Below are positions 4,905 to 63,940 of a DNA stretch of 64,000 nucleotides, in pieces. The first letter of the stretch is position 1; the number at the start of each line of letters is the position of its first letter. Position numbers and translations under genes: made by a program. The stretch covers positions 17,100-81,099 of the forward strand of contig CAZNRH010000001.1 in NCBI GenBank assembly GCA_964575755.1. The letters run 5' to 3'. The notes under the pieces were generated by a model. The model searched no databases. It saw nothing but the letters and a program-made list of their open reading frames with translations, and was not told the origin of the DNA. This DNA is from an uncultured Candidatus Saccharibacteria bacterium. Lineage in GTDB: Bacteria; Patescibacteriota; Minisyncoccia; Phycocordibacterales; JABMNX01.

Positions 4905-4920
4905 TCTGTATAAAAGATCG

Positions 4921-4945
4921 AAACCCCACCAATTGGTGGGGTTTC
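4921..4945 (+). terminator. Hairpin aaaccccacc-aattgg-tggggtttc downstream of the mazF-like gene
   Basis: Perfect 9-bp GC-rich stem 16 nt after the stop codon. No strong T-run follows, so intrinsic terminator function is uncertain. Confidence 0.4.
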
Positions 4946-5106: not shown

Positions 5107-6036
5107 ATGAATTCCAGCAACAATAAAAAAATCCTAATGATAACAGGGGACAAAAACCTATTTATACAGGGTACTCCACCTTATGAGCGCCTAGAGATAC
5201 AAAAGGAGCATGCCGACATAACACCCGTATTCTGGGGACATGGAGCGCTCCTGGCACCACTTAAAGAACGTGGAGCGTTTGATACGGTCACCGTACAAGA
5301 CCCATTTTGGCGCGGATTAGTAGGATTATACATTTCCACATACAAGCGAGCTCGGTTTAATGTTCAGCTACACACAGACTTAAGCTCACAAAGTTTTATG
5401 CGTAGAATTATCGCAAAAGTAGTATTACGACGAGCGCACTCAATACGTGTAGTATCATCCAAATTAAAGACTCAAGTTGAAAGTCTTGGAGTAAAAGCAT
5501 CAATTAAAGTGCTACCAATTTACTTAGATATAGAGCGATTTACTTCTGTGTTGAAAGATAAAGACACAAATACAAAGAAAACAATATTATGGGTAGGGCG
5601 TTTCGAAAAAGAAAAAGACCCATCACTAGCCATCAAAACATTAAAAGAAGTCCGTGCAAAAGACATAGACGCAGAGCTTATTATGCTTGGCGAAGGAAGT
5701 CTAAAAGATAAACTAGAAAAAGAGTCCGAAGGACAGCCAATAACATTTCACGGCTGGAGTGACCCACTGAAATACCTAGCTAAAGCAGACGTACTACTCA
5801 ATACTTCACATTACGAAGGATACGGTGCCACTATCGTAGAGGCACTCGCATCAGGAATACCAGTAGTATCACTCGATGTGGGGATAGCGCGTGAAGCAGG
5901 TGCAACTATCGCCACATATGAAGGGTTTACTAATAAAGTAGTTGAAACACTCAACTCAAACAAACCCGCTGAACTCAAGATCCAAATCCTCTCTAAAGCA
6001 CAGTGGGGAGCACAATGGAAAGAAACCCTAGCCTAA
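5107..6036 (+). CDS. Glycosyltransferase family 4
   Basis: WVGRFEKEKDP ... HYEGYGATIVEALASGIPVVSLDVG motifs. Confidence 0.75.
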   Translation: MNSSNNKKILMITGDKNLFIQGTPPYERLEIQKEHADITPVFWGHGALLAPLKERGAFDTVTVQDPFWRGLVGLYISTYKRARFNVQLHTDLSSQSFMRRIIAKVVLRRAHSIRVVSSKLKTQVESLGVKASIKVLPIYLDIERFTSVLKDKDTNTKKTILWVGRFEKEKDPSLAIKTLKEVRAKDIDAELIMLGEGSLKDKLEKESEGQPITFHGWSDPLKYLAKADVLLNTSHYEGYGATIVEALASGIPVVSLDVGIAREAGATIATYEGFTNKVVETLNSNKPAELKIQILSKAQWGAQWKETLA

Positions 6037-27751: not shown

Positions 27752-30286
27752 ATGATTTTTCTAAAAAAACTGTTTACAGTAGACGAACACAAGAAAGAGC
27801 TCAAAAAGCTTAGTCCTATTGTTGAAAAAATTAATGGACTTGAGGAGTCTTTTAGTGTTCTTTCTGATTCAGATTTAAAAAACAAAACGGAAGAGTTTAA
27901 AAAGCGCCTTATGGAGGGTGAGTCATTAGACGACATACTTCCAGAAGCATTTGCCGCAGTAAGAGAAGCCGCTAAGAGAACACTTGATCAAAGACATTTC
28001 GATGTACAACTTCTTGGGGGTATTACCTTACATAAGGGAAATATTTCAGAAATGAGAACAGGAGAAGGAAAGACTCTTGTAGCAACACTCCCTGCATATT
28101 TGAACGCATTGTCAGGCCTTGGGGTGCATGTAGTTACAGTAAACGACTACCTTTCAAGACGTGACGGCGTTTGGATGGGACAGATTTATACATTTCTAGG
28201 TTTGTCGGTTGGTGTAATAAACCAAGAATCTTCTTTCCTGTATGACAAGACAATCACACAGGATACAAAAGAAGACGAAGAGCGTGACGAATTAGGTTCA
28301 TTTAAAGTCGTGCATGAGTTTTTACGTCCAAGTACAAGGAGAGAGTCATATGAGGCAGACATAACATACGGCACAAACAACGAATTTGGTTTTGATTATC
28401 TTCGCGACAATATCGAATACGAAACAAGTTCACTACGACAACGTGGACACAATTTCGTAGTAGTAGATGAAATAGACTCTATTTTAATAGACGAAGCGCG
28501 GACACCTTTAATCATCTCAGCACCTACAGCAGATCCAGAAAACCTGTATGCAATGTTTGCAGGAATAGTAGCTAATCTTAAAATAGAAGAAGACTTTGTT
28601 GTAGATGAGAAACAAAAGGCTATTTCACTAACAGATACAGGAATAGAAAAAACAGAAAAGATATTAGGTATAGATAATATTTACACAGATAAAGGAGTGA
28701 AGTATGTACACCACCTAGAAACTGCAGTTCGAGCTAAGGCACTATTTGATAAAGATAAAGAATATGTCGTAAAAGACGATGAGGTCGTTATTGTAGATGA
28801 GTTTACAGGGCGGCTTCAGCCAGGACGTCGTTGGTCTGAGGGCCTCCATCAGGCGATAGAAGCAAAAGAAGGCGTGTCAGTTCAAAAAGAATCACGTACA
28901 TTCGCATCTATTACATACCAAAACTATTTCAGACTATACAACAAGCTTGCAGGTATGACAGGTACAGCGCTCACATCTTCAGAAGAGTTTTATAAAGTGT
29001 ACGGTCTTACAGTGGTATCAATACCAACCAATGTAGATCCAAAGAGATTAGACCAAGAAGATCTAATCTATCAGAGTGAAGTAGGAAAGTTTAAAGCAAT
29101 AGCCAAGAAAGTAAAAGAGCTCAACAAAGAAGGTCAACCAGTACTTATAGGTACAGTATCAATAGAGAAAAATGAATTACTCAGTTCTTTTCTTAAAAAA
29201 GAAGGAGTACAGCATAAAACATTAAATGCAAAGAACCACGAAAACGAAGGAGAAATCATCGCGCAGTCAGGAAGTAAGGGTAATGTAACCATAGCCACAA
29301 ACATGGCAGGGCGCGGAGTCGATATCAAACTTGGTGGAAACCCAGGTGGAGAAGAAGAATATGAGGAAGTAAAAAAGCTCGGCGGGCTCTTTGTACTCGG
29401 CACAGAGCGCCATGAAGCACGGCGTATAGACAACCAATTACGTGGACGTTCAGGAAGACAGGGTGACCCAGGAGAAACTCAGTTTTTTGTTTCCCTAGAA
29501 GACTCACTTATGCGAGTGTTCGCTTCAGATATGATTAAGCGTATGATGGGGCGTTTTGGCATACCAGAAGATCAACCAATAGAAAATAAAATGATTACGC
29601 GTTCGCTTGAGTCAGCACAGACAAAGATAGAAGGTTTTCATTTTGATTCACGAAAACACGTACTGCAGTATGACGACATTTTAAATCAACAAAGAACAAT
29701 TATATATAAAAGAAGAAGGGGAATATTACAAGGAGAAAAAAACGATGTATTACTTGCTATAGACAGTGTTATAGGGGGAGATACACACCTACTTAAAACA
29801 GTTGGAGATAAAAAAGAGTTGTTAGGGGAAGACGAGTTTGTTTCTACAGTACGAAGAATGCTGCTGCAAACAATCGATATGCTGTGGGTAGAGCATCTTG
29901 AGATGATGGATTACATGCGTTCAAGTGTAAATCTACGTGCATATGGTCAGCGCGACCCACTTGTAGAATACAAAAAGGAGGGATTGCGTATGTTTAAAGA
30001 GATGGAAGAGTCATACAAACATCAAATCAGAAGCGTATTACCGAATATCGGTGTAAACGCATTCGTAAAAGAAGAACAGAAAATGAAAGAAGTCCACGAT
30101 AGTGCAAAACTAATCAGTAGTAACGTACAAAAGAACGGCCCAACTGATCCTTTAAAGAATACAAATAAAATAGGTAGAAACGACATGGTTACAATTACAG
30201 ACGGTAAAGATACAAAAGAAATGAAGTACAAAAAAGCACAACATCTTATAGAAAGTGGCGAGTGGAGTATAAAAAATGAAGAGTGA
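27752..30286 (+). CDS. secA: Preprotein translocase ATPase SecA
   Basis: MRTGEGKTLVATLPAYLNAL Walker A, DEAD-like helicase motifs, LGGLFVLGTERHEARRIDNQLRGRSGRQGDPG. No C-terminal zinc finger. Confidence 0.95.
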   Translation: MIFLKKLFTVDEHKKELKKLSPIVEKINGLEESFSVLSDSDLKNKTEEFKKRLMEGESLDDILPEAFAAVREAAKRTLDQRHFDVQLLGGITLHKGNISEMRTGEGKTLVATLPAYLNALSGLGVHVVTVNDYLSRRDGVWMGQIYTFLGLSVGVINQESSFLYDKTITQDTKEDEERDELGSFKVVHEFLRPSTRRESYEADITYGTNNEFGFDYLRDNIEYETSSLRQRGHNFVVVDEIDSILIDEARTPLIISAPTADPENLYAMFAGIVANLKIEEDFVVDEKQKAISLTDTGIEKTEKILGIDNIYTDKGVKYVHHLETAVRAKALFDKDKEYVVKDDEVVIVDEFTGRLQPGRRWSEGLHQAIEAKEGVSVQKESRTFASITYQNYFRLYNKLAGMTGTALTSSEEFYKVYGLTVVSIPTNVDPKRLDQEDLIYQSEVGKFKAIAKKVKELNKEGQPVLIGTVSIEKNELLSSFLKKEGVQHKTLNAKNHENEGEIIAQSGSKGNVTIATNMAGRGVDIKLGGNPGGEEEYEEVKKLGGLFVLGTERHEARRIDNQLRGRSGRQGDPGETQFFVSLEDSLMRVFASDMIKRMMGRFGIPEDQPIENKMITRSLESAQTKIEGFHFDSRKHVLQYDDILNQQRTIIYKRRRGILQGEKNDVLLAIDSVIGGDTHLLKTVGDKKELLGEDEFVSTVRRMLLQTIDMLWVEHLEMMDYMRSSVNLRAYGQRDPLVEYKKEGLRMFKEMEESYKHQIRSVLPNIGVNAFVKEEQKMKEVHDSAKLISSNVQKNGPTDPLKNTNKIGRNDMVTITDGKDTKEMKYKKAQHLIESGEWSIKNEE

Positions 30287-30312
30287 ATGTTCGAAGCTAA
30301 GCTTCGAACATT
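30286..30312 (+). repeat. REP-like palindrome aatgttcgaagct-a-agcttcgaacatt
   Basis: Perfect 13-bp arms. Overlaps the last base of the secA stop codon. Confidence 0.6.
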
Positions 30313-30412
30313 TTAAACAAACAAGGACATTCGATGTTCATAAATCAAAAAAATATGAGATCAAAAGAAGAATTGCATCATTTTAATTGCAAAGAGTGCG
30401 GTAAATGGTAGA

Positions 30413-30435
30413 TGTTCGAAGCTTAGCTTCGAACA
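30413..30435 (+). repeat. REP-like palindrome tgttcgaagct-t-agcttcgaaca (inverted partner of 30286)
   Basis: Same family. Its centre is the reverse complement of the first copy. The pair brackets a 100-nt spacer. Confidence 0.6.
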
Positions 30436-32589: not shown

Positions 32590-33570
32590 ATGAAATTTAT
32601 AGACGAAATAACATTAACAGTAAAAGCAGGAAACGGCGGCAGCGGCGTCGTTAGATGGCTCCAACAAAGAGGAAATCCTCGAGGTGGTCCTGTTGGTGGA
32701 GACGGTGGCAGTGGTGCAGACGTGTACGCGAAAGCAGTACGCGACATAAACATACTTTCCAAATACAGAGGAGATACGGATTTCGTCGCAGAAAACGGAG
32801 GAGACGGTGGCAGGTTAAGTAGACATGGAAAGAACGGAGACACGTTGTACATAAAGTTGCCAATAGGATCAATTATAAAAAATACCGAGACAGGGGAGAC
32901 GTTTGAGTTGCTAGAAGACGGGCAAGAAACGATAATGCTCTCAGGGGGGCGTGGGGGGCTCGGTAACGAGCATTTTAAGAGCTCAGTAAATGTAGTACCA
33001 AAACAAAGCACGAAGGGTAAGCAAGGTGGCTACGCAAAGTTTGAAATAGAGCTATCTTTAATAGCTGATGCAGGTTTTATAGGATTACCAAATGCAGGTA
33101 AATCTAGTCTACTAAACACAATAACCAAAGCAGATGCAAAAGTCGGTAGTTATCAATTCACAACTCTAGACCCAAACCTGGGAGATTTTTACGGGTTTAT
33201 TCTCGCAGACATACCAGGGATAATCGAAGGAGCATCAGAGGGTAAAGGTCTAGGACATAAGTTTCTTAAGCACATAACACGAACGAAAATACTTGTTCAT
33301 TGTATATCACTTGAAAGTGAAGATGTGGTAGAAGACTATCAAACTATTCGTAATGAACTAATTTCATATAACAAAGAGCTCGGAGATAAGAAAGAAATAA
33401 TAATACTCACCAAGAGTGATTTAGTTTCAGATGAAAAATTAAAAAGCGTACAAGACACTCTATCTAAAGAAACACAGAGCAACATCGTCCATATGTCTAT
33501 TCTGGATGACGAGTTAGTTAAAAGTTTTTCAGACACACTCACCTTGTTACTTCAAAAGGGAAGCGAATAA
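32590..33570 (+). CDS. obg: GTPase Obg/CgtA
   Basis: MKFIDEITLTVKAGNGGSGVV Obg fold N-terminus, glycine-rich repeats, G1 ADAGFIGLPNAGKSSLL, G3 DIPG. Confidence 0.95.
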   Translation: MKFIDEITLTVKAGNGGSGVVRWLQQRGNPRGGPVGGDGGSGADVYAKAVRDINILSKYRGDTDFVAENGGDGGRLSRHGKNGDTLYIKLPIGSIIKNTETGETFELLEDGQETIMLSGGRGGLGNEHFKSSVNVVPKQSTKGKQGGYAKFEIELSLIADAGFIGLPNAGKSSLLNTITKADAKVGSYQFTTLDPNLGDFYGFILADIPGIIEGASEGKGLGHKFLKHITRTKILVHCISLESEDVVEDYQTIRNELISYNKELGDKKEIIILTKSDLVSDEKLKSVQDTLSKETQSNIVHMSILDDELVKSFSDTLTLLLQKGSE

Positions 33571-33573
33571 ACC

Positions 33574-33612
33574 CATCATAATGTGCGAAGCTTAGCTTCG
33601 CACATTATGATG
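33574..33612 (+). repeat. 39-nt perfect palindrome catcataatgtgcgaagct-t-agcttcgcacattatgatg
   Basis: 19-bp arms. Starts 4 nt after the obg stop codon. Confidence 0.65.
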
Positions 33613-33638
33613 ATAATTACATGGTAGTATAAATCTAT

Positions 33639-34304
33639 ATGAGGAAGATTATTTTTGCACAAGGTGAATATTACCACCTCTTTTGTCGAGGAAATAACAA
33701 ACAAACCATATTTCGAGATAATCGTGATAAGATACGTTTTTTATTTCTTATTTTAAATTTCCAATCTCCGATGACACATAATAACTTAGGGCGTTATGTC
33801 AATAATTATGTTAAAGATTCAACTTTTAATATAAAAGACGAGGATATTGATACCATGATTGAAGATAGATATGTTGAATTAGTTAGCTTTGCGTTAATGC
33901 CTAATCACTTTCATCTTATTGTTAAAGAAGTCGAAGATAAAGGAGTATCTCAATACATGCATAGAGTATTGACTTCATACACTAAGTATTTTAATGCCAA
34001 ACATGAGCATACAGGACATTTATTTCAAGGCTCATATGGAGCTGTACATGTCAGCGATAATGAACAACTGCTTTATTTGTCAGCATACATACATAGAAAT
34101 CCTCGAGATATAAAAAAGTGGTTTAATAAAGAAAGAGAGTACTACTGGTCAAGCTATCAAGATTATATTAATAAAAATCGTTGGGGTAAATTACTTGAGA
34201 ACAGCATAATAATAGATCAATTTAAAGACGGTAAAGATTACGATGGGGAAGTACAACAAAGCGGAGCAAAAGAATTACTTGATGAGAAACACACAATAAT
34301 TTAA
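33639..34304 (+). CDS. IS200-like / REP-associated tyrosine transposase (RAYT-like, HUH Y1)
   Basis: GEYYHLFCRGNNKQTIF N-terminus, HuH motif MPNHFHLIV, catalytic-Tyr region QLLYLSAYIHRNP. Paralog of 47358-48029. Confidence 0.6.
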   Translation: MRKIIFAQGEYYHLFCRGNNKQTIFRDNRDKIRFLFLILNFQSPMTHNNLGRYVNNYVKDSTFNIKDEDIDTMIEDRYVELVSFALMPNHFHLIVKEVEDKGVSQYMHRVLTSYTKYFNAKHEHTGHLFQGSYGAVHVSDNEQLLYLSAYIHRNPRDIKKWFNKEREYYWSSYQDYINKNRWGKLLENSIIIDQFKDGKDYDGEVQQSGAKELLDEKHTII

Positions 34305-34309
34305 CTATC

Positions 34310-34340
34310 AAAATGTGCGAAGCTTAGCTTCGCACATTTT
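34310..34340 (+). repeat. 31-nt palindrome aaaatgtgcgaagct-t-agcttcgcacatttt
   Basis: Same core as the left palindrome. Starts 6 nt after the transposase stop. Confidence 0.65.
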
Positions 34341-34434
34341 GATCAAAGTACACTTTGTTTTTTGATAGAGGGAATAGAGTCGTAATAGTGAAGTAGTGGA
34401 AGAGGATGGGAGTATTTGTTATAGTATTCCTACA

Positions 34435-35850
34435 ATGGAATCTAAATATACACCAACCATAGGTCTTGAAATACACGCAGAGCTCAAAACAAAGACAAAG
34501 ATGTTTTGTAATTCAAAGAACGATCCAGATGAAAAACGTCCTAATGTAAATGTGTGTTCGGTGTGTATGGCGCACCCAGGAACACTTCCGGTTATAAATA
34601 AAGAAGCTGTTAAGCATGTGCTTAAAGTTGGTCTAGCGCTTGGTGGAGAGTTGGCAGACTTCACAGAGTTCGATAGAAAAAATTATTTCTATCCAGACAT
34701 CCCTAAAGGCTATCAAATCAGTCAGTACAAGTACCCACTTATATCAGGTGGAAGTATTAATGGTATAGAGATTACACGGATTCATCTAGAAGAAGATACT
34801 GCACGTTCAACTCACGACAAAGGAGAAAAAAGTCTAGTAGATTTCAACCGTGCAGGCATCCCACTTATGGAGCTGGTTACAGAGCCAGTCATCACAAATG
34901 CAAAAGATGCTAGTGACTTTGCTAAAGAGTTGCAATTACTTTTACGATATCTCGGGGCAGGAGACGCAAATATGGAAAAGGGCGAGATGCGAGTAGAAGC
35001 AAATATCTCAGTGAGTAGTACAGGCAAAATGGGTACCAAAGTCGAGATTAAGAACTTAAACTCCTTTAAAGTAGTAGAGAAATCAGTCGAATACGAGATA
35101 TCTCGGCAGATTAAGGTATTAGAAGAGGATGGAGAAGTAGTTCAGGAAACACGAGGGTGGGATGAAAACAAACAAATAACCTTTTCTCAAAGAATTAAAG
35201 AGGAGTCACATGACTATCGCTATATGCCTGACCCAGATTTACCTAAGTTAAAAATCTCGGAGTTACAGGATTTCGATAAAAATGAGTTAAAAAGAGAAAT
35301 ACCAGAACTTCCGTGGAAGAAGAGAAATTATTATATGAACGATCTCGGTATTAAAAAACAGGACGCTGATCTGTTTGTAAACAATAAAGCATACAGAACT
35401 CTTTTAGATGAGTATGTAATCCCTTCTTTTAAAGAAAATAGTAAAAGATTTAGCTTAGCAGTTAACTATATCGCTTCTGATGTTGTTGGGATGACTTCTC
35501 GACTTGGCGAGAATAGCGTACCTCTTGGTTCTAATTTTACTGAATTAATAGAGATGATCAGTGCTAATGAGGTCTCGTCTCGTGGAGGAAAAGACATACT
35601 TCAAATACTTTTGTCAGAAGGAGGCGACCCGAGAAAAGTTGCAGAGTCGGGCGGACTACTTCAGGAAAATGACAAAGACAAATTACAAAAACTTATAGAC
35701 GAAATAATATCCGAGAATAGAGAAGTTGTAGAAGATTACAAAAAAGGGAAGGAAGCATCTCTACAATTCTTAATAGGGCAAGGGATGAAAAAGAGCAAAG
35801 GCTCGGCTAACCCAGAATTATTAAAAACTATTTTACTTAAATCTATTTAA
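34435..35850 (+). CDS. gatB: Asp-tRNA(Asn)/Glu-tRNA(Gln) amidotransferase subunit B
   Basis: MESKYTPTIGLEIHAELKTKTKMFC N-terminus, GatB catalytic core and C-terminal GatB/YqeY domain. The ORF-track start at 34396 adds 13 non-conserved residues. Confidence 0.9.
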   Translation: MESKYTPTIGLEIHAELKTKTKMFCNSKNDPDEKRPNVNVCSVCMAHPGTLPVINKEAVKHVLKVGLALGGELADFTEFDRKNYFYPDIPKGYQISQYKYPLISGGSINGIEITRIHLEEDTARSTHDKGEKSLVDFNRAGIPLMELVTEPVITNAKDASDFAKELQLLLRYLGAGDANMEKGEMRVEANISVSSTGKMGTKVEIKNLNSFKVVEKSVEYEISRQIKVLEEDGEVVQETRGWDENKQITFSQRIKEESHDYRYMPDPDLPKLKISELQDFDKNELKREIPELPWKKRNYYMNDLGIKKQDADLFVNNKAYRTLLDEYVIPSFKENSKRFSLAVNYIASDVVGMTSRLGENSVPLGSNFTELIEMISANEVSSRGGKDILQILLSEGGDPRKVAESGGLLQENDKDKLQKLIDEIISENREVVEDYKKGKEASLQFLIGQGMKKSKGSANPELLKTILLKSI

Positions 35851-41451: not shown

Positions 41452-41535
41452 CTAGCCATCTTCGACAAATCCTAACGACTGTTGAAGTCAGACTTCAACA
41501 GTCAACAATACTCAAATCAAAAAATAAATTACAGC

Positions 41536-43464: not shown

Positions 43465-46400
43465 ATGCCATTAGGAGCAGAATTCAGAGGACTACTTGGA
43501 ACTGCTGGAACCTCCAGTAGCTCTTTCGTGATTCCACAATCAATCCGCTTTAACGACAACGACTTAGCATATATGTCCAGGACACCTTCAGTGGCCGGTA
43601 ACCGCAAGACATGGACTTGGAGTGGTTGGGTTAAACGTGGGAGTTTAGGAGGTTCCCAAGTAATATTTGGTGCTGGTGCGAACAGTTCTGATAGAGCTTT
43701 ATTTTATTTCAGTGGGGACAATCCTACATTTATTATAAGTGCTGCGTCAGTTAATATAGGGTTTATAAAGACTACACAAGTATTACGAGATCCTTCAGCG
43801 TGGTATCATCTTGTTCTTGTTGTTGATACAACTCAAGCTACAGCGGCTAATAGATTAAAGATGTATATAAACGGGGAGCAAGTAACATCGCTTTCTACTG
43901 CAACATATCCAGCTCAGAATACAGATACTTATATCAATTACACAGAAATTCATAGGATAGGTAGTGATTCCGCAACCATCTCAAGTCTTATGGATGGCTA
44001 CCTCGCAGACGTACACTTCATTGATGGTTCTGCACTAGCCGCTTCCGACTTTGGTGAAACAGACGCTAACGGTAGTTGGGTTCCTATTGAGTTTGACAGT
44101 AGTGCTATCGCCGCAGAAACAGTCACCTCTAGTTACTGTACCAGTGCCGTTGATGCTACAGATAGCGCCTCTTACACATTCTCTAGCCAGTCTATTGGCA
44201 CAGCGACATCAGACAGAATAGTCGTAGTCACCACCGCGCAAGGTAACGTCGGTATGACTGTGGGTTCTCTGACCGTTGGAGGCATCAGTGCGACTGAGGC
44301 TATTGAAATAACTGAAAGCACTGGGTACGCCACTTCTGGGCAATGGTATGTACCAGTTCCAACAGGAACAACTGCTGACATAGTTGTTAATATTTCAGGT
44401 GGTACTGCATCAAGATGTGGTATCACAGTTCACGCAATATATGGCTCTAGTGGAAAGCCCTACGCAACAGCTTACGCTGAACAGGACTACCCTCTTATTC
44501 AATCCATCCAAGTTCCCGATAATGGGGTGATCATCGGCGCGTCAATGGTTAATTCCGGTGCGCCAACTGTCACTTGGACTAACCTCACTGAACGAGTTGA
44601 CGAAGTAATTGAGAGCGCCTCATCCTCACAATCTGTGGCTTCGGATGCATTTGCTACGGGCGGGTCAATAACTGTTACCTGCTCCCCTGCGTCAGATAAC
44701 CGTGAAGTGCTAACCCTAACTTCATGGGGCGCGGTAGGAGGCTACGGCACCAACGGCTTTTATATTGATGGGGCTGACAGTGCTAATCTTGGTTTAGATG
44801 TGAATGCAGTAACTAGCACGGCTTTAACAGTTACATTCACAGATAGCTCGGTAGATACATCAAACAGTACAGCCTACACATTTTCTTCTCAGGCAATCGG
44901 CGCAGCAGGAAGTGATCGTACTATTGTCGTTGCTACAAATGGTGAGGGTGGAGGCGCAAGTCGCTATGTCAGCACACTGACCATTGGCGGCGTAAGTGCA
45001 ACAAAAATAGTTTCTAGCTTATCAGAAAACCTCTATTGGCCTTGTGAGATGTGGAAAGCTGTCGTCCCAACAGGCACTACGGCGGATATTATCGTTACTT
45101 GGGATAGTAACATGTCTGAGTGTGGCTTAGGGGTGTGGGATGTTCGTAATATGGGGGGGGTGTTTTCTTCTGGTACAGATAGTACAGACCCCGGAAATAC
45201 CACCCTGTGGATACCTGCTGGTGGCGTTGGGATTGGTTCTATGAAAAGCGGTGGCGGGGTTGCATCGTACACTTGGACAGGATTAACCAAAGACTATGAT
45301 GAACTTGTTGACAGTGCGAACAATGGGTATCATTCAGGAGCCAGTATAACAAACGCAACGGCACAGTCTCTTGCTATTGAGGCCAACCCTTCCGGTGGTT
45401 CACAGTTTGCATTTTGTGCCGTGTCCTTTGTGATGGCAAATGATAATTCATTTGCCCCTTCCGGCCTGACAACTGCCGATCAAATGCTCGACAGCCCGAC
45501 CGATGATGCGGCGAATGGGATTGGCAATTACTGCACTTGGAACGTACTTAATAACTCGGGTCCAGGATACACATGGTCAAATGGCAATCTAAAGTCAACT
45601 TCGGATGCTCAAGGTCAGGACGGCGCATCTGGAACACTCCATGCTTCTTCTGGTAAATATTATTTTGAGTACACTGTCGACGCTATCGTAACTGGTGGAA
45701 CTGTATATGGAGTATGTACTGATGGTTGTGCGGCCTCTAGTGATATGGTTGACGGCACGGTCGCGGGTGGTATGGATCTTTATGGCGGTGGCGAAGTTTA
45801 TGGATACAGAGGAACCGGAGGAAAAGTTGATATTTCCTCCGACACAGCTTACGGGACTTCGTTCGTCGCTACTGATGTAATTGGCGTAGCTCTAGATTTA
45901 GATAATGGAATTATTTGGTTCAGTAAGAACGGCGCTTGGCAAGAATCTGCGACGCAGGGCGAGATCGAAGCAGGGACTACGACCAACGCAGCATTTACAT
46001 GGACCCCAGCTGGTCAGTTCTGGACTATTTGGATGCACGATTTTGGTGCAAATTCATCTGGCACTTTTAATGGGGGTCAATCAGGTTTTACGTATACCCC
46101 TCCAACAGGTTTCAAAGCTCTTTGTACCGCCAACCTCCCAGCCCCTACTATTACAGACCCTAGCGCCTACAATCAGACAGAACTCTTTACAGGTAATTCA
46201 GCCACAAATGTTATTACGTTTAGTGGTAACTCCACAATGCAACCAGACTTAGTATGGATTAAGCGACGGGATTGGTTAGGAAGTAACCATGTTATTACTG
46301 ATAGTGTTCGTGGTGTTACCAAGGAGATTAACTCGGACCTTACTAATGCAGAGTCCACGGAAGCTACTGGCTTAACTTCTTTTGATACAAATGGATTTAC

Positions 46401-47175
46401 TATTGGATCACATGGTGATTATAATACTAGTGGGAAGCTACAAGTAGCGTGGTGTTGGAAGGCAGGTGGCGCTGGCGTTTCAAACACTGACGGCTCCGTT
46501 ACATCAACTGTCAGTGCCGATACAACAAGTGGTTTCTCGATTGCCAAGTATACTGGGCTAGATGCTGCCATAACGGTCGGGCATGGACTATCAAGTGCTC
46601 CAGAATTCATAATAGTCCGTAATCTTTCGGCTGTTGCCAGTTGGGCTGTGTATCATAAAGATATGACAGGCGCAACCTACTACTTGACGCTTGACACAAC
46701 CGTAGCACAAGCTGGACCTGATGCTAGTATTTTTTCAGCCGCACCAACTGCTACTATCCTTAATATTGGGAACAGTATCAGAACAAGTCGCGCATCAGAG
46801 AACTTTATTGCTTATTCTTGGCACTCAGTTTCTGGCTTCTCCGCTTTTGGCACATACACAGGCAACGGTTTAGCAGATGGGCCTTTTGTTCATTGTGGTT
46901 TTAGGCCAGCGTTTATTATGATTAAAAACATAACTTCTGCTGGAAGTTGGAATTTGATAGATGTTAAAAGAGATAACTATAACGTTGTGTCAAGACGTTT
47001 ATTAGCACAAGCCCCTGATGTGGAAGTTACCGGGGGAACTTATATGGATATCACCTCAAATGGTTTCAAACGGCGTTCAACAAACTTCAACACGGACACA
47101 GAAATATATCTTTACGCAGCATTCGCAGAACACCCGTTCGGTGGTGATGGTGTCTCTCAAGCACGAGCACGGTAG
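43465..47175 (+). CDS. Giant (1236 aa) protein with an N-terminal LamG/concanavalin-A-like lectin domain and a long Thr/Ser/Gly/Ala-rich beta-repeat region
   Basis: FYFSGDNPTFIISAASVNIGF...WYHLVLVVDTTQATAANRLKMYINGEQV matches the LamG-like jelly-roll signature (W.HLv.v.d......lYvnG). No classical signal peptide. Preceded by a cataattcctaattc motif. GC visibly higher than the surrounding genes. Confidence 0.5.
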   Translation: MPLGAEFRGLLGTAGTSSSSFVIPQSIRFNDNDLAYMSRTPSVAGNRKTWTWSGWVKRGSLGGSQVIFGAGANSSDRALFYFSGDNPTFIISAASVNIGFIKTTQVLRDPSAWYHLVLVVDTTQATAANRLKMYINGEQVTSLSTATYPAQNTDTYINYTEIHRIGSDSATISSLMDGYLADVHFIDGSALAASDFGETDANGSWVPIEFDSSAIAAETVTSSYCTSAVDATDSASYTFSSQSIGTATSDRIVVVTTAQGNVGMTVGSLTVGGISATEAIEITESTGYATSGQWYVPVPTGTTADIVVNISGGTASRCGITVHAIYGSSGKPYATAYAEQDYPLIQSIQVPDNGVIIGASMVNSGAPTVTWTNLTERVDEVIESASSSQSVASDAFATGGSITVTCSPASDNREVLTLTSWGAVGGYGTNGFYIDGADSANLGLDVNAVTSTALTVTFTDSSVDTSNSTAYTFSSQAIGAAGSDRTIVVATNGEGGGASRYVSTLTIGGVSATKIVSSLSENLYWPCEMWKAVVPTGTTADIIVTWDSNMSECGLGVWDVRNMGGVFSSGTDSTDPGNTTLWIPAGGVGIGSMKSGGGVASYTWTGLTKDYDELVDSANNGYHSGASITNATAQSLAIEANPSGGSQFAFCAVSFVMANDNSFAPSGLTTADQMLDSPTDDAANGIGNYCTWNVLNNSGPGYTWSNGNLKSTSDAQGQDGASGTLHASSGKYYFEYTVDAIVTGGTVYGVCTDGCAASSDMVDGTVAGGMDLYGGGEVYGYRGTGGKVDISSDTAYGTSFVATDVIGVALDLDNGIIWFSKNGAWQESATQGEIEAGTTTNAAFTWTPAGQFWTIWMHDFGANSSGTFNGGQSGFTYTPPTGFKALCTANLPAPTITDPSAYNQTELFTGNSATNVITFSGNSTMQPDLVWIKRRDWLGSNHVITDSVRGVTKEINSDLTNAESTEATGLTSFDTNGFTIGSHGDYNTSGKLQVAWCWKAGGAGVSNTDGSVTSTVSADTTSGFSIAKYTGLDAAITVGHGLSSAPEFIIVRNLSAVASWAVYHKDMTGATYYLTLDTTVAQAGPDASIFSAAPTATILNIGNSIRTSRASENFIAYSWHSVSGFSAFGTYTGNGLADGPFVHCGFRPAFIMIKNITSAGSWNLIDVKRDNYNVVSRRLLAQAPDVEVTGGTYMDITSNGFKRRSTNFNTDTEIYLYAAFAEHPFGGDGVSQARAR

Positions 47176-47311
47176 ACTTCGATTTGGCGCATCTTTGTTG
47201 CGCCAGGCAACATACATTTCTCGTTCAAATATGCGACGTCCAACATCGCATATTTGAACAGAGCGTAACACCTACTCAAGAATAATATTTTGAATATCTC
47301 CAATATAGAAA

Positions 47312-47357: not shown

Positions 47358-48029
47358 ATGCGTAAAACACCTTTTATAAACGGAGAGTTTTATCATCTTT
47401 ACAATCGTGGTGTAGACAAAAGAAATACTTTTGAGGACCAAGAAGATGTTAATAGATTTTTTCAAAGTATGGAAGAATTTAATGTAGTCGAGCCAGTGGG
47501 GAGTATTTATGAAAATTCATTCAGAAAAAAGAACAAACTTGGAGGTCGAACCTCCAAGTTAGATAAGTTAGTAGAATTTGTTTGTTATTGTATTAATCCT
47601 AATCATTATCATTTTATAGTGTCGCAAACTAGAGACAACGGCATTAGTGAATTTATGAAAAGACTGTCAGGGGGATATACATATTATTTTAATAATAAAA
47701 ACAAAAGATCAGGATCCCTTTTTCAAGGTACATTTAAATCTGTTCACATAGACTCAAATGAGTACCTACTACATTTAAGTGCTTATGTAAATTTAAATAA
47801 CAAAGTACATAAACTTAATAGTTCATCCTATAAGTTAGTGAGATCAAGTTGGAATGAATATATAGAGAGGAATAAAAAAAGACAAGCTGATTTTTGCGAG
47901 AAAAGTATTGTTTTAGGTCAATTTAAAAACCCCTCAGAATATAAAGTTTTTGCAGAAAATTCTTTGAATGATATTTTATACCACAAGTCTCAGAAGGAAA
48001 TAGGGTCTCTAATTATAGAAAAATTATAA
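47358..48029 (+). CDS. IS200-like / REP-associated tyrosine transposase (RAYT-like, HUH Y1)
   Basis: GEFYHLYNRGVDKRNTF, HuH INPNHYHFIV, catalytic-Tyr region YLLHLSAYVNLN. Paralog of 33639-34304 and of the 5' fragment at 2-376. Confidence 0.6.
   Translation: MRKTPFINGEFYHLYNRGVDKRNTFEDQEDVNRFFQSMEEFNVVEPVGSIYENSFRKKNKLGGRTSKLDKLVEFVCYCINPNHYHFIVSQTRDNGISEFMKRLSGGYTYYFNNKNKRSGSLFQGTFKSVHIDSNEYLLHLSAYVNLNNKVHKLNSSSYKLVRSSWNEYIERNKKRQADFCEKSIVLGQFKNPSEYKVFAENSLNDILYHKSQKEIGSLIIEKL
47536..47560 (+). repeat. REP palindrome aacttggaggt-cga-acctccaagtt inside the transposase ORF (encodes KLGGRTSKL)
   Basis: Same family as the flanking palindromes. Lies in-frame within the CDS at a position where the paralog 33639 has unrelated sequence. 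Confidence 0.6.
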
Positions 48030-48052: not shown

Positions 48053-48079
48053 CTACTTGGAGGTTCGACCTCCAAGTAG
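48053..48079 (+). repeat. 27-nt palindrome ctacttggaggt-tcg-acctccaagtag
   Basis: 12-bp arms. Starts 24 nt after the transposase stop. Confidence 0.65.
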
Positions 48080-56070: not shown

Positions 56071-56150
56071 ATCAGGTTAATAATCTTTAAACCAAGTTAA
56101 TAATCTATAAATAAGTTACGAATTGGGTAAGACTACATCTCATATAAAAC

Positions 56151-56168
56151 CTTACGATATATCGTAAG
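56151..56168. repeat. Palindrome cttacgatatatcgtaag (copy 1 of 3)
   Basis: Perfect 18-nt palindrome preceded by aaac. Confidence 0.6.
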
Positions 56169-56214
56169 AAATCAAAGAAAAAAATAACCAAAGAAAAAAA
56201 TAACAGCAAAAACA

Positions 56215-56240
56215 AAACCTCACGATATATCGTAAGGTTT
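56215..56240. repeat. Palindrome aaacctcacgatatatcgtaaggttt (copy 2); probable bidirectional terminator
   Basis: One mismatch in the arms. Lies 7 nt beyond the stop of the minus-strand gene. T-runs on both strands. Confidence 0.6.
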
Positions 56241-56246
56241 TGGAAT

Positions 56247-56648
56247 TTACAATTCGTCAATAAACTTTTTAAAGGATTTTTTCTTGCCAGTGAAAGCTAG
56301 AGCGACAATAGATTCAAGAAGAGCATCTAAAGACCCTTCTTTGCTATTCTTCCAAACCCAATCTGTAGTGTGTTTGTATTTACCAAACTCAACAGCTAAC
56401 GAGAAACGTTTAGCAGTTGAAGGACTTACTCCTAATAATTCACTTATTTTATATAAAGAAACTCCTTTTCTTATAAGAAGTAACATCCCAATACGTTTAG
56501 CAAGCATTATAGTTTCTGTTTCGGTTAATAATTCCTCAAGAACCAGAGCACGTTTTTTAGATCCAGTATCTCTAAGTAATGTGTAAAAATGTTTTTCTAG
56601 ACCCTTCTTTATATCGGCATCGAGTTTCTTTTGTGAAATATGTGGCAT
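56247..56648 (-). CDS. Small HTH DNA-binding protein (TrpR-like YerC/YecD-type), putative
   Basis: 133 aa. LYKISELLGVSPSTAKRFS is an HTH-like segment. It is the only minus-strand gene here, flanked on both sides by the same palindrome. Confidence 0.4.
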   Translation of the reverse strand: MPHISQKKLDADIKKGLEKHFYTLLRDTGSKKRALVLEELLTETETIMLAKRIGMLLLIRKGVSLYKISELLGVSPSTAKRFSLAVEFGKYKHTTDWVWKNSKEGSLDALLESIVALAFTGKKKSFKKFIDEL

Positions 56649-56652
56649 ATAT

Positions 56653-56678
56653 AAACCTTACGATATATCGTAAGGTTT
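56653..56678. repeat. Palindrome aaaccttacgatatatcgtaaggttt (copy 3), in the 5' region of the minus-strand HTH gene
   Basis: Perfect 26-nt palindrome 5 nt upstream of the start codon. Followed by the same ggttttggaat tail as copy 2. Confidence 0.6.
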
Positions 56679-58447: not shown

Positions 58448-58475
58448 TCTAAATTAAAAAGAATAATCTCAATAT

Positions 58476-58505
58476 AAAAATACTCCAGTATACTGGAGTA
58501 TTTTT
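58476..58505 (+). terminator. Rho-independent terminator (tactccagta-tactggagta + T5)
   Basis: 10-bp perfect stem followed by ttttt, 29 nt after the rplY stop. Confidence 0.65.
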
Positions 58506-58601
58506 ATATTGTTGAGTGGATAGTATGGTTAATAATTTTACAAAAGTTTTACCACTACGTATTTCGACAAATGTACTATATTGGTATAATAACTATTAAT
58601 C

Positions 58602-63867: not shown

Positions 63868-63940
63868 GCCACCTTAGCTCAGTTGGTAGAGCAACTCACT
63901 TGTAATGAGTAGGTCGTGGGTTCGAATCCCTCAGGTGGCT
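63868..63940 (+). tRNA. tRNA-Thr (anticodon UGU)
   Basis: Cloverleaf: acceptor gccacct/aggtggc, D-arm tagctcagttggtagagca, anticodon stem-loop actca-cttgtaa-tgagt (anticodon TGT), T-arm gtgggttcgaatccctc. No encoded CCA. Confidence 0.85.

Follow-up and report, generated by a model that had tools for sequence, protein, structure and literature searches.

A probable REPtron-like cassette in a Candidatus Saccharibacteria genome: a class-2 Y1/HUH gene between two perfect palindromes

What kind of element is formed by a Y1 transposase gene that stands between two perfect palindromes in a genome of the Candidate Phyla Radiation (CPR)? The question is raised by a 770-bp unit, hairpin-RAYT-A-hairpin (33574-34343), that lies between obg (32590-33570) upstream and gatB (34396-35850) downstream in a 64-kb stretch of DNA from an uncultured Candidatus Saccharibacteria bacterium (hereafter the window, 37% G+C). 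An initial annotation had read it as a repetitive extragenic palindromic (REP) system with its REP-associated tyrosine transposase (RAYT). We consider it moderately probable that the unit is a REPtron-like cassette comprised of a domesticated class-2 Y1/HUH (histidine-hydrophobic-histidine) gene and two symmetric “double-foot” perfect palindromes with the core TGTKCGAAGCTWAGCTTCGMACA. This reading is directly supported by the enzyme class and fold, the hairpins, the co-variation of gene and hairpin, the intergenic dispersal of the palindrome, and a divergence anomaly bounded by the hairpins. The features concerned are listed below, the palindrome family of the locus being termed P1 and the corresponding locus of a related genome L011.

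33574-33612, no strand: upstream P1 palindrome of 39 nucleotides (nt), with 19-nt arms that are 100% complementary around 1 central base
33613-33638, plus strand: 26-nt leader from the hairpin to the ATG, mostly kept in comparison with L011, above all from 33620 on
33639-34304, plus strand: RAYT-A gene, an open reading frame (ORF) of 221 amino acids (aa) for a RAYT-like class-2 Y1/HUH enzyme
33808-33830, plus strand: decayed internal hairpin site ATGTTAAAGATTCAACTTTTAAT, encoding V58-K-D-S-T-F-N64
34307-34343, no strand: downstream P1 palindrome of 37 nt, perfect, with 18-nt arms
30286-30312, no strand: dispersed P1 copy, a 27-nt palindrome of the GTT/AAC (gttcg) variant with loop CTA, at the secA stop codon
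30413-30435, no strand: dispersed P1 copy of 23 nt, GTT/AAC (gttcg) variant with loop TTA, at a deletion junction

The two flanking palindromes fit closely around the gene. The upstream copy begins 3 nt past the obg stop codon and ends 26 nt ahead of the ATG of RAYT-A, and the downstream copy begins 2 nt past the RAYT-A stop codon. Both are perfect and symmetric, share the core, and have the foot (A)TGT...ACA(T) on both sides; each contains gtgcgaagcttagcttcgcac (33583-33603 and 34315-34335) within a 23-nt core, TGTGCGAAGCTTAGCTTCGCACA (33582-33604 and 34314-34336), of which even the central base is identical, and the loops have equal, not inverted, orientation. The initial annotation had described palindromes of 39 and 31 nt with a shared core; the first length and the core are confirmed, whereas the second palindrome is in fact 37 nt long and the 31 nt (34310-34340) are its inner part. 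Folded as single-stranded DNA, the upstream copy reaches -20.5 kcal/mol (z=-11.8) and the downstream copy -19.3 kcal/mol (z=-9.3) relative to shuffled sequences. In the window, the 17-nt P1 core gives 8 strand-hits at 4 sites against 0.15 expected, and none of 100 shuffles reaches 8. No consensus promoter was called on the plus strand of the 26-nt leader, which presumably carries expression signals.

The protein belongs to the Y1 transposases, as initially proposed: it scores 45 bits against the Pfam family Y1_Tnp (PF01797; cut-off 23, E=1.4e-11), and the motifs YHLFCRG, NHFHLIV and YLSAY(IHRNP) are all present. The relevant residues are Y12-H13-R17, the HUH motif N89-H90-F91-H92, F129-Q130, Y150 within YIHRNP, and a tail W170-S171-S172-Y173. 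Among RAYT-A and 112 homologs, H13, R17, N89, H90, H92, Q130, Y150, N154, W161 and S171 are invariant, and H90, H92, Y150 and N154 are invariant in a separate 23-sequence alignment too; the invariance of the HUH and tyrosine residues across the family argues that the nuclease chemistry has probably been retained. The tyrosine motif Y150-I-H-R-N154-P155 has the form Y---NP, which is the signature of class-2 TnpA-Y1 (RAYT-like) proteins, whereas the transposases of IS200 have Y---Q (PMC6006769). An AlphaFold model of RAYT-A (predicted local distance difference test score, pLDDT, 90.1) finds its best match in the PDB in 4er8_A, E. coli TnpA-REP with a bound REP hairpin (E=6.6e-6, 180 columns). 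The ISDra2 and IS608 transposases rank behind it, and every one of the top 18 fold matches is a Y1 transposase. At the level of sequence the relationship is faint: RAYT-A is 12% identical to 4ER8, and a sequence-profile search of the PDB returned only ISDra2 TnpA (E ~0.06) and did not find 4ER8. Taken together, these data support the view that RAYT-A, as a Y1/HUH enzyme, belongs with the RAYTs (TnpA-REP) and not with the IS200 transposases.

RAYT-A is one member of a large family. A word-indexed protein search found at least 2,789 relatives at the level of 90%-identity clusters; the best 120 of the 2,789, the query's own cluster aside, are about 55-63% identical, and the relatives are named in their sources as Zambryski-, Nomura-, Curtiss-, Sung-, Niyogi- and Nealsonbacteria, that is, many Patescibacteria lineages. 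An exhaustive search of 50%-identity cluster representatives gave 17,142 clusters at E<=1e-3, of which 6,360 reach E<=1e-10. At most of the 80 metagenome loci taken as family loci, the gene is accompanied by a perfect palindrome, usually of 19-29 nt and at most 47 nt, situated 4-50 nt ahead of the start and 0-25 nt past the stop. These palindromes are equal on both sides within a locus and different between loci. Thus, the association of gene and hairpin that had been proposed for the window extends well beyond it, the upstream and downstream flanks sharing a 10-mer or longer word in 52 of 72 homolog loci and in 12 of 175 controls. In closer relatives of RAYT-A (“family A”) the palindromes follow the pattern TGT[TGC]NAA...TTN[ACG]ACA, of which GCGAAGTCCGACTTCGCACA at locus L051 is an example and into which P1 fits. 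As a separate observation, the 47-nt downstream hairpin of L052 looks like a palindrome copy within the loop of another copy, and the upstream hairpins of L033, L037 and L041 are head-to-head doublets of 44-46 nt; such nested or doubled palindromes may indicate that hairpins serve as insertion targets for hairpins.

The co-variation extends into the coding sequence. About 30 loci have an extra perfect, in-frame copy of their own palindrome within the gene, mostly in the segment that joins two helices ahead of the HUH motif (aa 51-68), and in some cases at aa 150-170, past the Y motif. A Curtissbacteria locus has internal and downstream hairpins. In family A the internal segment V-K-H-x-V-F-N is the translation of TGTTAAACACNNNGTGTTTAACA. 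Among 32 loci in which the first internal site and a flank are both occupied by a hairpin, 21 equal their own flank over the 8 loop-proximal bases; in those 21 no other locus matches better, and other loci differ on average at about 5 of the 8 positions. The loop orientations of upstream, internal and downstream copies occur in every combination. The idea that internal hairpins are a mere ancient relic was rejected for the family on the basis of this locus-by-locus match to the flanks. RAYT-A itself has a decayed site at the position where many relatives have a perfect in-frame copy.

Outside the locus, P1 behaves as a small dispersed family. The initial annotation had anticipated that the palindrome would be over-represented and intergenic, which is borne out by a scan of the exact P1 pattern over species-representative genomes: 9 copies are found in each of two metagenome-assembled genomes (MAGs) titled “uncultured Candidatus Saccharibacteria” and 2 in a MAG titled Omnitrophota, while three singletons in other genomes are probably chance matches. 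ORFs of at least 100 aa cover 89% of the sequence, yet 18 of 24 copies fall outside them (P ~1e-13). Many copies are situated within about 15 nt of a gene 3′ end, often with A-runs 5′ and T-runs 3′.

The pair of copies with gttcg arms downstream of secA, which had been described as an orphan inverted pair, is real, and the 844-aa ORF on whose stop codon the first copy starts (at its last base) is SecA by Pfam. The first copy (30286-30312) is also found at the orthologous site of another locus, L007, whereas the second (30413-30435) is absent there. About 230 bp of L007 are missing from the window at the second copy, which amounts to an insertion/deletion polymorphism at a hairpin. The lost DNA includes most of a small ORF for a Zn-ribbon protein (CxxC...CxxC), which is intact in L007, with about 70 aa; in the window (region 30334-30435) the same copy cuts this ORF off after “...HHFNCKECGKW”. 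A doublet of similar spacing in L019 has a spacer unrelated to that of the secA pair. The reading of the pair as a REPIN (REP doublet forming a hairpin) was therefore rejected: what separates the copies is a Zn-ribbon ORF in truncated form, and the second of them lies at the deletion junction.

Comparison with a closer relative shows that the pairing of P1 is upheld as its sequence changes. The MAG CAZVBS is syntenic with the window at ~80% nt identity and contains the obg-RAYT-gatB locus L011, whose protein is 92% identical to RAYT-A and is flanked by the GTT/AAC variant of P1. Between the window and L011, both flanking P1 copies share a paired G-C to T-A change, and the outer arms have two compensatory double changes. 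These compensatory, paired changes imply that perfect pairing is maintained and not just inherited.

The cassette also stands out from its surroundings in divergence. It is 92.8% identical to L011 (synonymous divergence, dS, 0.27; ratio of nonsynonymous to synonymous divergence, dN/dS, 0.14), compared with 81.4% for obg (dS 1.0), 80.5% for gatB (dS 1.13) and 85.5% for the VTT-domain gene (dS 0.60). Across the upstream hairpin the identity climbs from 0.74 to 0.95, and it falls back to ~0.82 past the downstream hairpin. The trio L024/L025/L027 has p-distances of 0.074, 0.112 and 0.118 for the gene and of 0.349, 0.358 and 0.158 for the upstream flank, and the site patterns of the gene favour the pair (24,25) at 50:25:21, whereas those of the flank favour (25,27) at 60:52:235. 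This conflict between the trees of gene and flank suggests lateral replacement. In two other clades, by contrast, the gene is about as identical as the flank and there is no excess conservation. A generally slow clock was rejected as the cause of the low divergence of the cassette, given the two clades without excess and the one topologically incongruent trio. These patterns suggest that a hairpin-bounded cassette may be replaced laterally, and episodically, at a fixed locus. In L076, a more distant genome, obg adjoins gatB directly and the cassette is absent.

The window contains further Y1 genes that were absent from the initial annotation, as were the in-frame hairpins in family genes. The three paralogs in the 64 kb are just ~34-38% identical, and each has a different palindrome. 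The other two, and a palindrome family of a different kind (P4), are as follows.

47358-48029: paralog B, full gene, 223 aa, Pfam Y1_Tnp 32 bits
47305-47359: upstream palindrome of paralog B, 55 nt, perfect, extending over the start codon
47536-47560: internal in-frame copy in paralog B, with inverted loop, encoding KLGGRTSKL
48053-48079: downstream copy of paralog B, 27 nt
1-375: third Y1 paralog, truncated at the window edge so that its C-terminal part remains
124-146: imperfect in-frame palindrome of the third paralog, encoding FGGPTAEL, just past the Y motif
56149-56170, 56217-56238 and 56655-56676: P4 palindrome family, ACCTTACGATATATCGTAAGGT

Paralog B, with the palindrome CTTGGAGGT-TCG-ACCTCCAAG, provides the clearest triplet of upstream, internal and downstream copies in the window; no downstream copy was found at the third paralog. 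A small ORF on the minus strand (about 56264-56650), which is no Y1 gene, stands between two P4 copies, and in a related MAG a P4 copy is located at a different site (L004, around 5700-5760); P4 might represent an operator or one more REP-like family. Long palindromes are unusually frequent in the window, others being located at 58470-58511 (42 nt), 41477-41503 (27 nt) and 4920-4945 (26 nt), all perfect, and at 47223-47259 (37 nt, with arms 94% complementary). The sole Rfam match in the window at the gathering threshold is one tRNA (63868-63940). Just upstream of paralog B a 1236-aa Laminin_G_3 protein (with SPRY and DUF7483) is encoded at 43465-47175, and in another lineage a DUF2341/Laminin_G_3 protein (L100, 4907-8461) adjoins a family-A homolog; the occurrence of a giant Laminin_G_3 protein beside a Y1 gene in two places may be a coincidence.

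How does the cassette compare with known systems? It resembles the E. coli REPtron in that the gene lies between its own palindromes, no near-identical duplicates are seen within the 64-kb window and more copies are intergenic, and RAYT-A resembles E. coli TnpA-REP (RAYT group 2, or subclass 2.2; 4ER8) in the HUH motif, the single catalytic Tyr in Y---NP and a C-terminal tail beyond the IS200 core, in addition to the structural match. On the other hand, the REPs of E. coli are imperfect, bulged, begin with 5′ GTAG, are strand-specific and number hundreds of copies (PMC8266576, PMC6006769), whereas P1 is perfect and symmetric, with a TGT...ACA foot and few copies. Among the subclasses in Table 1 of PMC6006769 the closest by motif is 2.1 (Bertels group 1; TIRYT), which shares NH[YF]H, FQ, Y[IV]HxNP, an “SS” tail and a length of about 220-240 aa. 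However, subclass 2.1 is reported to lack REP-like structures and to have C-terminal helix-turn-helix (HTH) domains (PMC6006769), whereas the RAYT-A family has flanking and internal hairpins and no HTH domain detectable by Pfam was found in RAYT-A. The “double-foot” long REPs, the in-frame REPs within the tnpA-REP gene and the NH[IFV]H form of the HUH motif are instead shared with TnpA-Y1 subclass 2.4 (Bertels group 4; Quentin et al. 2018, PMC6006769); slow evolution has been described for RAYT groups 4 and 5 (Bertels et al., PMC5581495). RAYT-A differs from subclass 2.4 in having FQ rather than WQ and YIHRNP rather than YIxNNP, its family hosts are CPR bacteria rather than Cyanobacteria or Bacteroidetes, and the in-frame sites lie before the HUH motif (aa ~51-68) and past the Y motif (aa ~150-170); these sites, which change together with the flanks, are thus at new positions relative to the subclass 2.4 precedent. 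By these comparisons, RAYT-A most resembles subclass 2.1 when judged by motif only and subclass 2.4 when judged by the behaviour of the hairpins.

The locus might also be explained as an autonomous insertion sequence (IS) of the IS200 type, with the hairpins as left and right ends of a 770-bp element that moves by single-strand peel-and-paste. The size and the order of hairpin, tnpA-like gene and hairpin resemble those of IS200, to which the Y1_Tnp fold, the unit of about 0.7-0.8 kb and the perfect hairpin upstream of the gene also correspond (IS200/IS605, subclass 1.1), and such an element would account for two flanking hairpins of equal loop orientation, for a cassette far less diverged than its flanks with a tree conflict in one clade, and for the obg-gatB junction without a cassette in L076. 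However, RAYT-A shows none of the other marks of IS200, namely Y---Q, a core-only protein of ~150 aa and multiple near-identical copies (PMC6006769): it has Y---NP and 221 aa with the WSSY tail (PMC6006769 Table 1), its closest structure is TnpA-REP, and the window has no near-identical copies but three divergent paralogs whose palindromes differ. The same site is occupied in a relative of ~80% identity (L011), one protein is found on many contigs with always the same neighbours, and hairpins within coding sequence are no feature of IS ends. An IS200-type element is accordingly regarded as unlikely. A further explanation, that the palindromes are host regulatory sites (bidirectional terminators or insulators, or operators in double-stranded DNA) that the Y1 protein does not process, would attribute the association to autoregulation or to selection for insulation. 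The usual position of the copies within about 15 nt of a stop codon, the frequent A- and T-runs, the low dispersal and the unrelated P4 around a small non-Y1 gene are in keeping with it, whereas the terminator scan is ambiguous: the upstream P1 was called terminator-like on the minus strand only, and not on the strand of the gene, and the downstream P1 was not called. Moreover, terminators are normally not identical in sequence across unrelated loci and genomes, loop orientation flips freely among the copies, perfect in-frame copies in the coding region change in step with the flanks, and the family shows no variation in the catalytic HUH and Tyr; we therefore hold a purely regulatory origin to be improbable as well. 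That the palindromes are an artefact of assembly or library preparation can hardly be credited. Perfect palindromes and contigs that end at repeats are known failure modes of assemblers, and contig L001 does begin within a P1 copy. Against this, a separate NCBI contig is 99.98% identical over 5,690 nt (~5.7 kb), including all palindrome cores, which by itself makes an assembly artefact unlikely; the syntenic MAG of ~80% identity has the arrangement with compensatory differences, and dozens of unrelated metagenomes have it with locus-specific sequences.

Several observations weigh against the preferred reading, a REPtron-like cassette. RAYT-A scores 36.6 bits against the NCBIfam REP_Tyr_transpos equivalog NF047646, well below the cut-off of 80, so that the initial identification as a RAYT, borne out by Y---NP, the WSSY tail and the fold match to 4ER8, stands only in part. 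No 5′ GT[AG]G (or CGTC) was found at the foot of the P1 hairpins, and with the perfect symmetric palindromes, the flanking loops of the same orientation and the low copy number (4 in the 64-kb window and 9 of the exact pattern in each of two related MAGs), this speaks against the “classic” RAYT architecture that had been assumed. Dispersal is weak, with 2 extra copies of P1 in the 64-kb window and just 10 extra copies of the family palindromes in 401 kb of flank around 62 homolog loci, and no dispersed copies of P2 and P3, the palindromes of the other two paralogs, were found in the window. The internal site of RAYT-A (33808-33830) has a longest arm of only 5-6 nt and no match to P1, and loci of the Zambryskibacteria and Sungbacteria type have no perfect hairpin of at least 9 pairs near the gene. 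The P4 copies beside a non-Y1 gene indicate that gene-flanking palindromes are not peculiar to Y1 genes here. Lastly, the P1 core also flanks paralogs only 35-36% identical to RAYT-A, in the CAYJUS MAG (L002, 3492-4275), where it additionally occurs in frame within the gene and encodes VRSLASN, and in the Omnitrophota-titled MAG (L012, 6611-7382). The pairing of enzyme and hairpin is thus not one-to-one, and the enzyme that acts on P1 is uncertain. Apart from that question, L002 and L012 are a case of one palindrome common to distant enzyme lineages and to genomes with different labels.

If the cassette is REPtron-like, a feasible model may be proposed for its operation, in which catalysis, mobility, the single-stranded substrate, copying or replacement, and the action of the enzyme on P1 are matters that we infer. 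The palindromes would fold into hairpins on single-stranded DNA, such as that of a replication fork or that imported into the cell; since they are perfect and symmetric, either strand could present the substrate. RAYT-A would bind the hairpin, nick it by means of Tyr150 and the metal site of His90/His92, and rejoin the strands. Hairpin recognition, nicking and rejoining have been shown experimentally for TnpA-REP and for IS608/ISDra2 (PMC8266576). The enzyme may act mainly near its own gene, with which the identity of the copies nearest to or inside the gene is consistent, so that adjacent and internal hairpins would be repeatedly overwritten with the current variant and would stay identical and perfectly paired. 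Now and then a copy might be placed at the end of some other gene. Lateral replacement of the cassette between related genomes appears to be delimited by the hairpins, which may plausibly have a secondary role at gene ends, as insulators or terminators. In the terminal resolution of parvoviruses, DNA is nicked and copied with the folded arm as template. By analogy only, a similar nick-and-copy step on the folded arm would explain the perfect arms, the outer arms specific to each copy and the flipping loops.

It is also tempting to speculate on a hairpin-to-hairpin “cut-and-replace” reaction on single-stranded DNA in CPR bacteria, in which a symmetric hairpin is excised or nicked and reinstalled from either strand at existing sites. 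From such a reaction the perfect arms, the flipped loops and the frame-preserving concerted change beside and inside the gene would follow, as would a lateral swap in which the cassette between the hairpins is exchanged at an unchanging locus, possibly by way of DNA acquired by competence. “Cut-and-replace” is not described for RAYTs or IS200 elements, and we put it forward as a rather doubtful, though possible, proposal.

The enzyme class and the logic of the REPtron are known already; what is new is the range of hosts, the symmetric hairpins without GTAG, the new in-frame concerted sites and the putative exchange at the level of the cassette. The suspicion that such systems were not obviously known from CPR bacteria proved correct within the literature searched, which contained no paper linking CPR/Patescibacteria with RAYT, REPIN or IS200. 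A 2018 survey of 1,354 species with complete genomes makes no mention of CPR lineages, and found class-2 genes to be enriched in large genomes and absent from Mollicutes (PMC6006769). The three paralogs in 64 kb of an ultra-small CPR genome of 37% G+C contrast with the large genomes in which RAYT genes are typically found, and in the lineage of the window RAYT-A is more conserved than its housekeeping neighbours. That an enzyme of single-stranded DNA is kept with intact catalytic residues in reduced genomes suggests a role at the level of the host, in DNA processing or genome plasticity. With a 221-aa enzyme and a 23-nt perfect hairpin, the locus offers a small testable system that could reveal the way in which perfect-palindrome REPs are recognised and the reason for the oddly slow evolution, or the exchange, of RAYT genes. 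In-frame hairpins, where they change in step with those of the flanks, would provide a clean natural readout of the activity of such an enzyme on its own gene.

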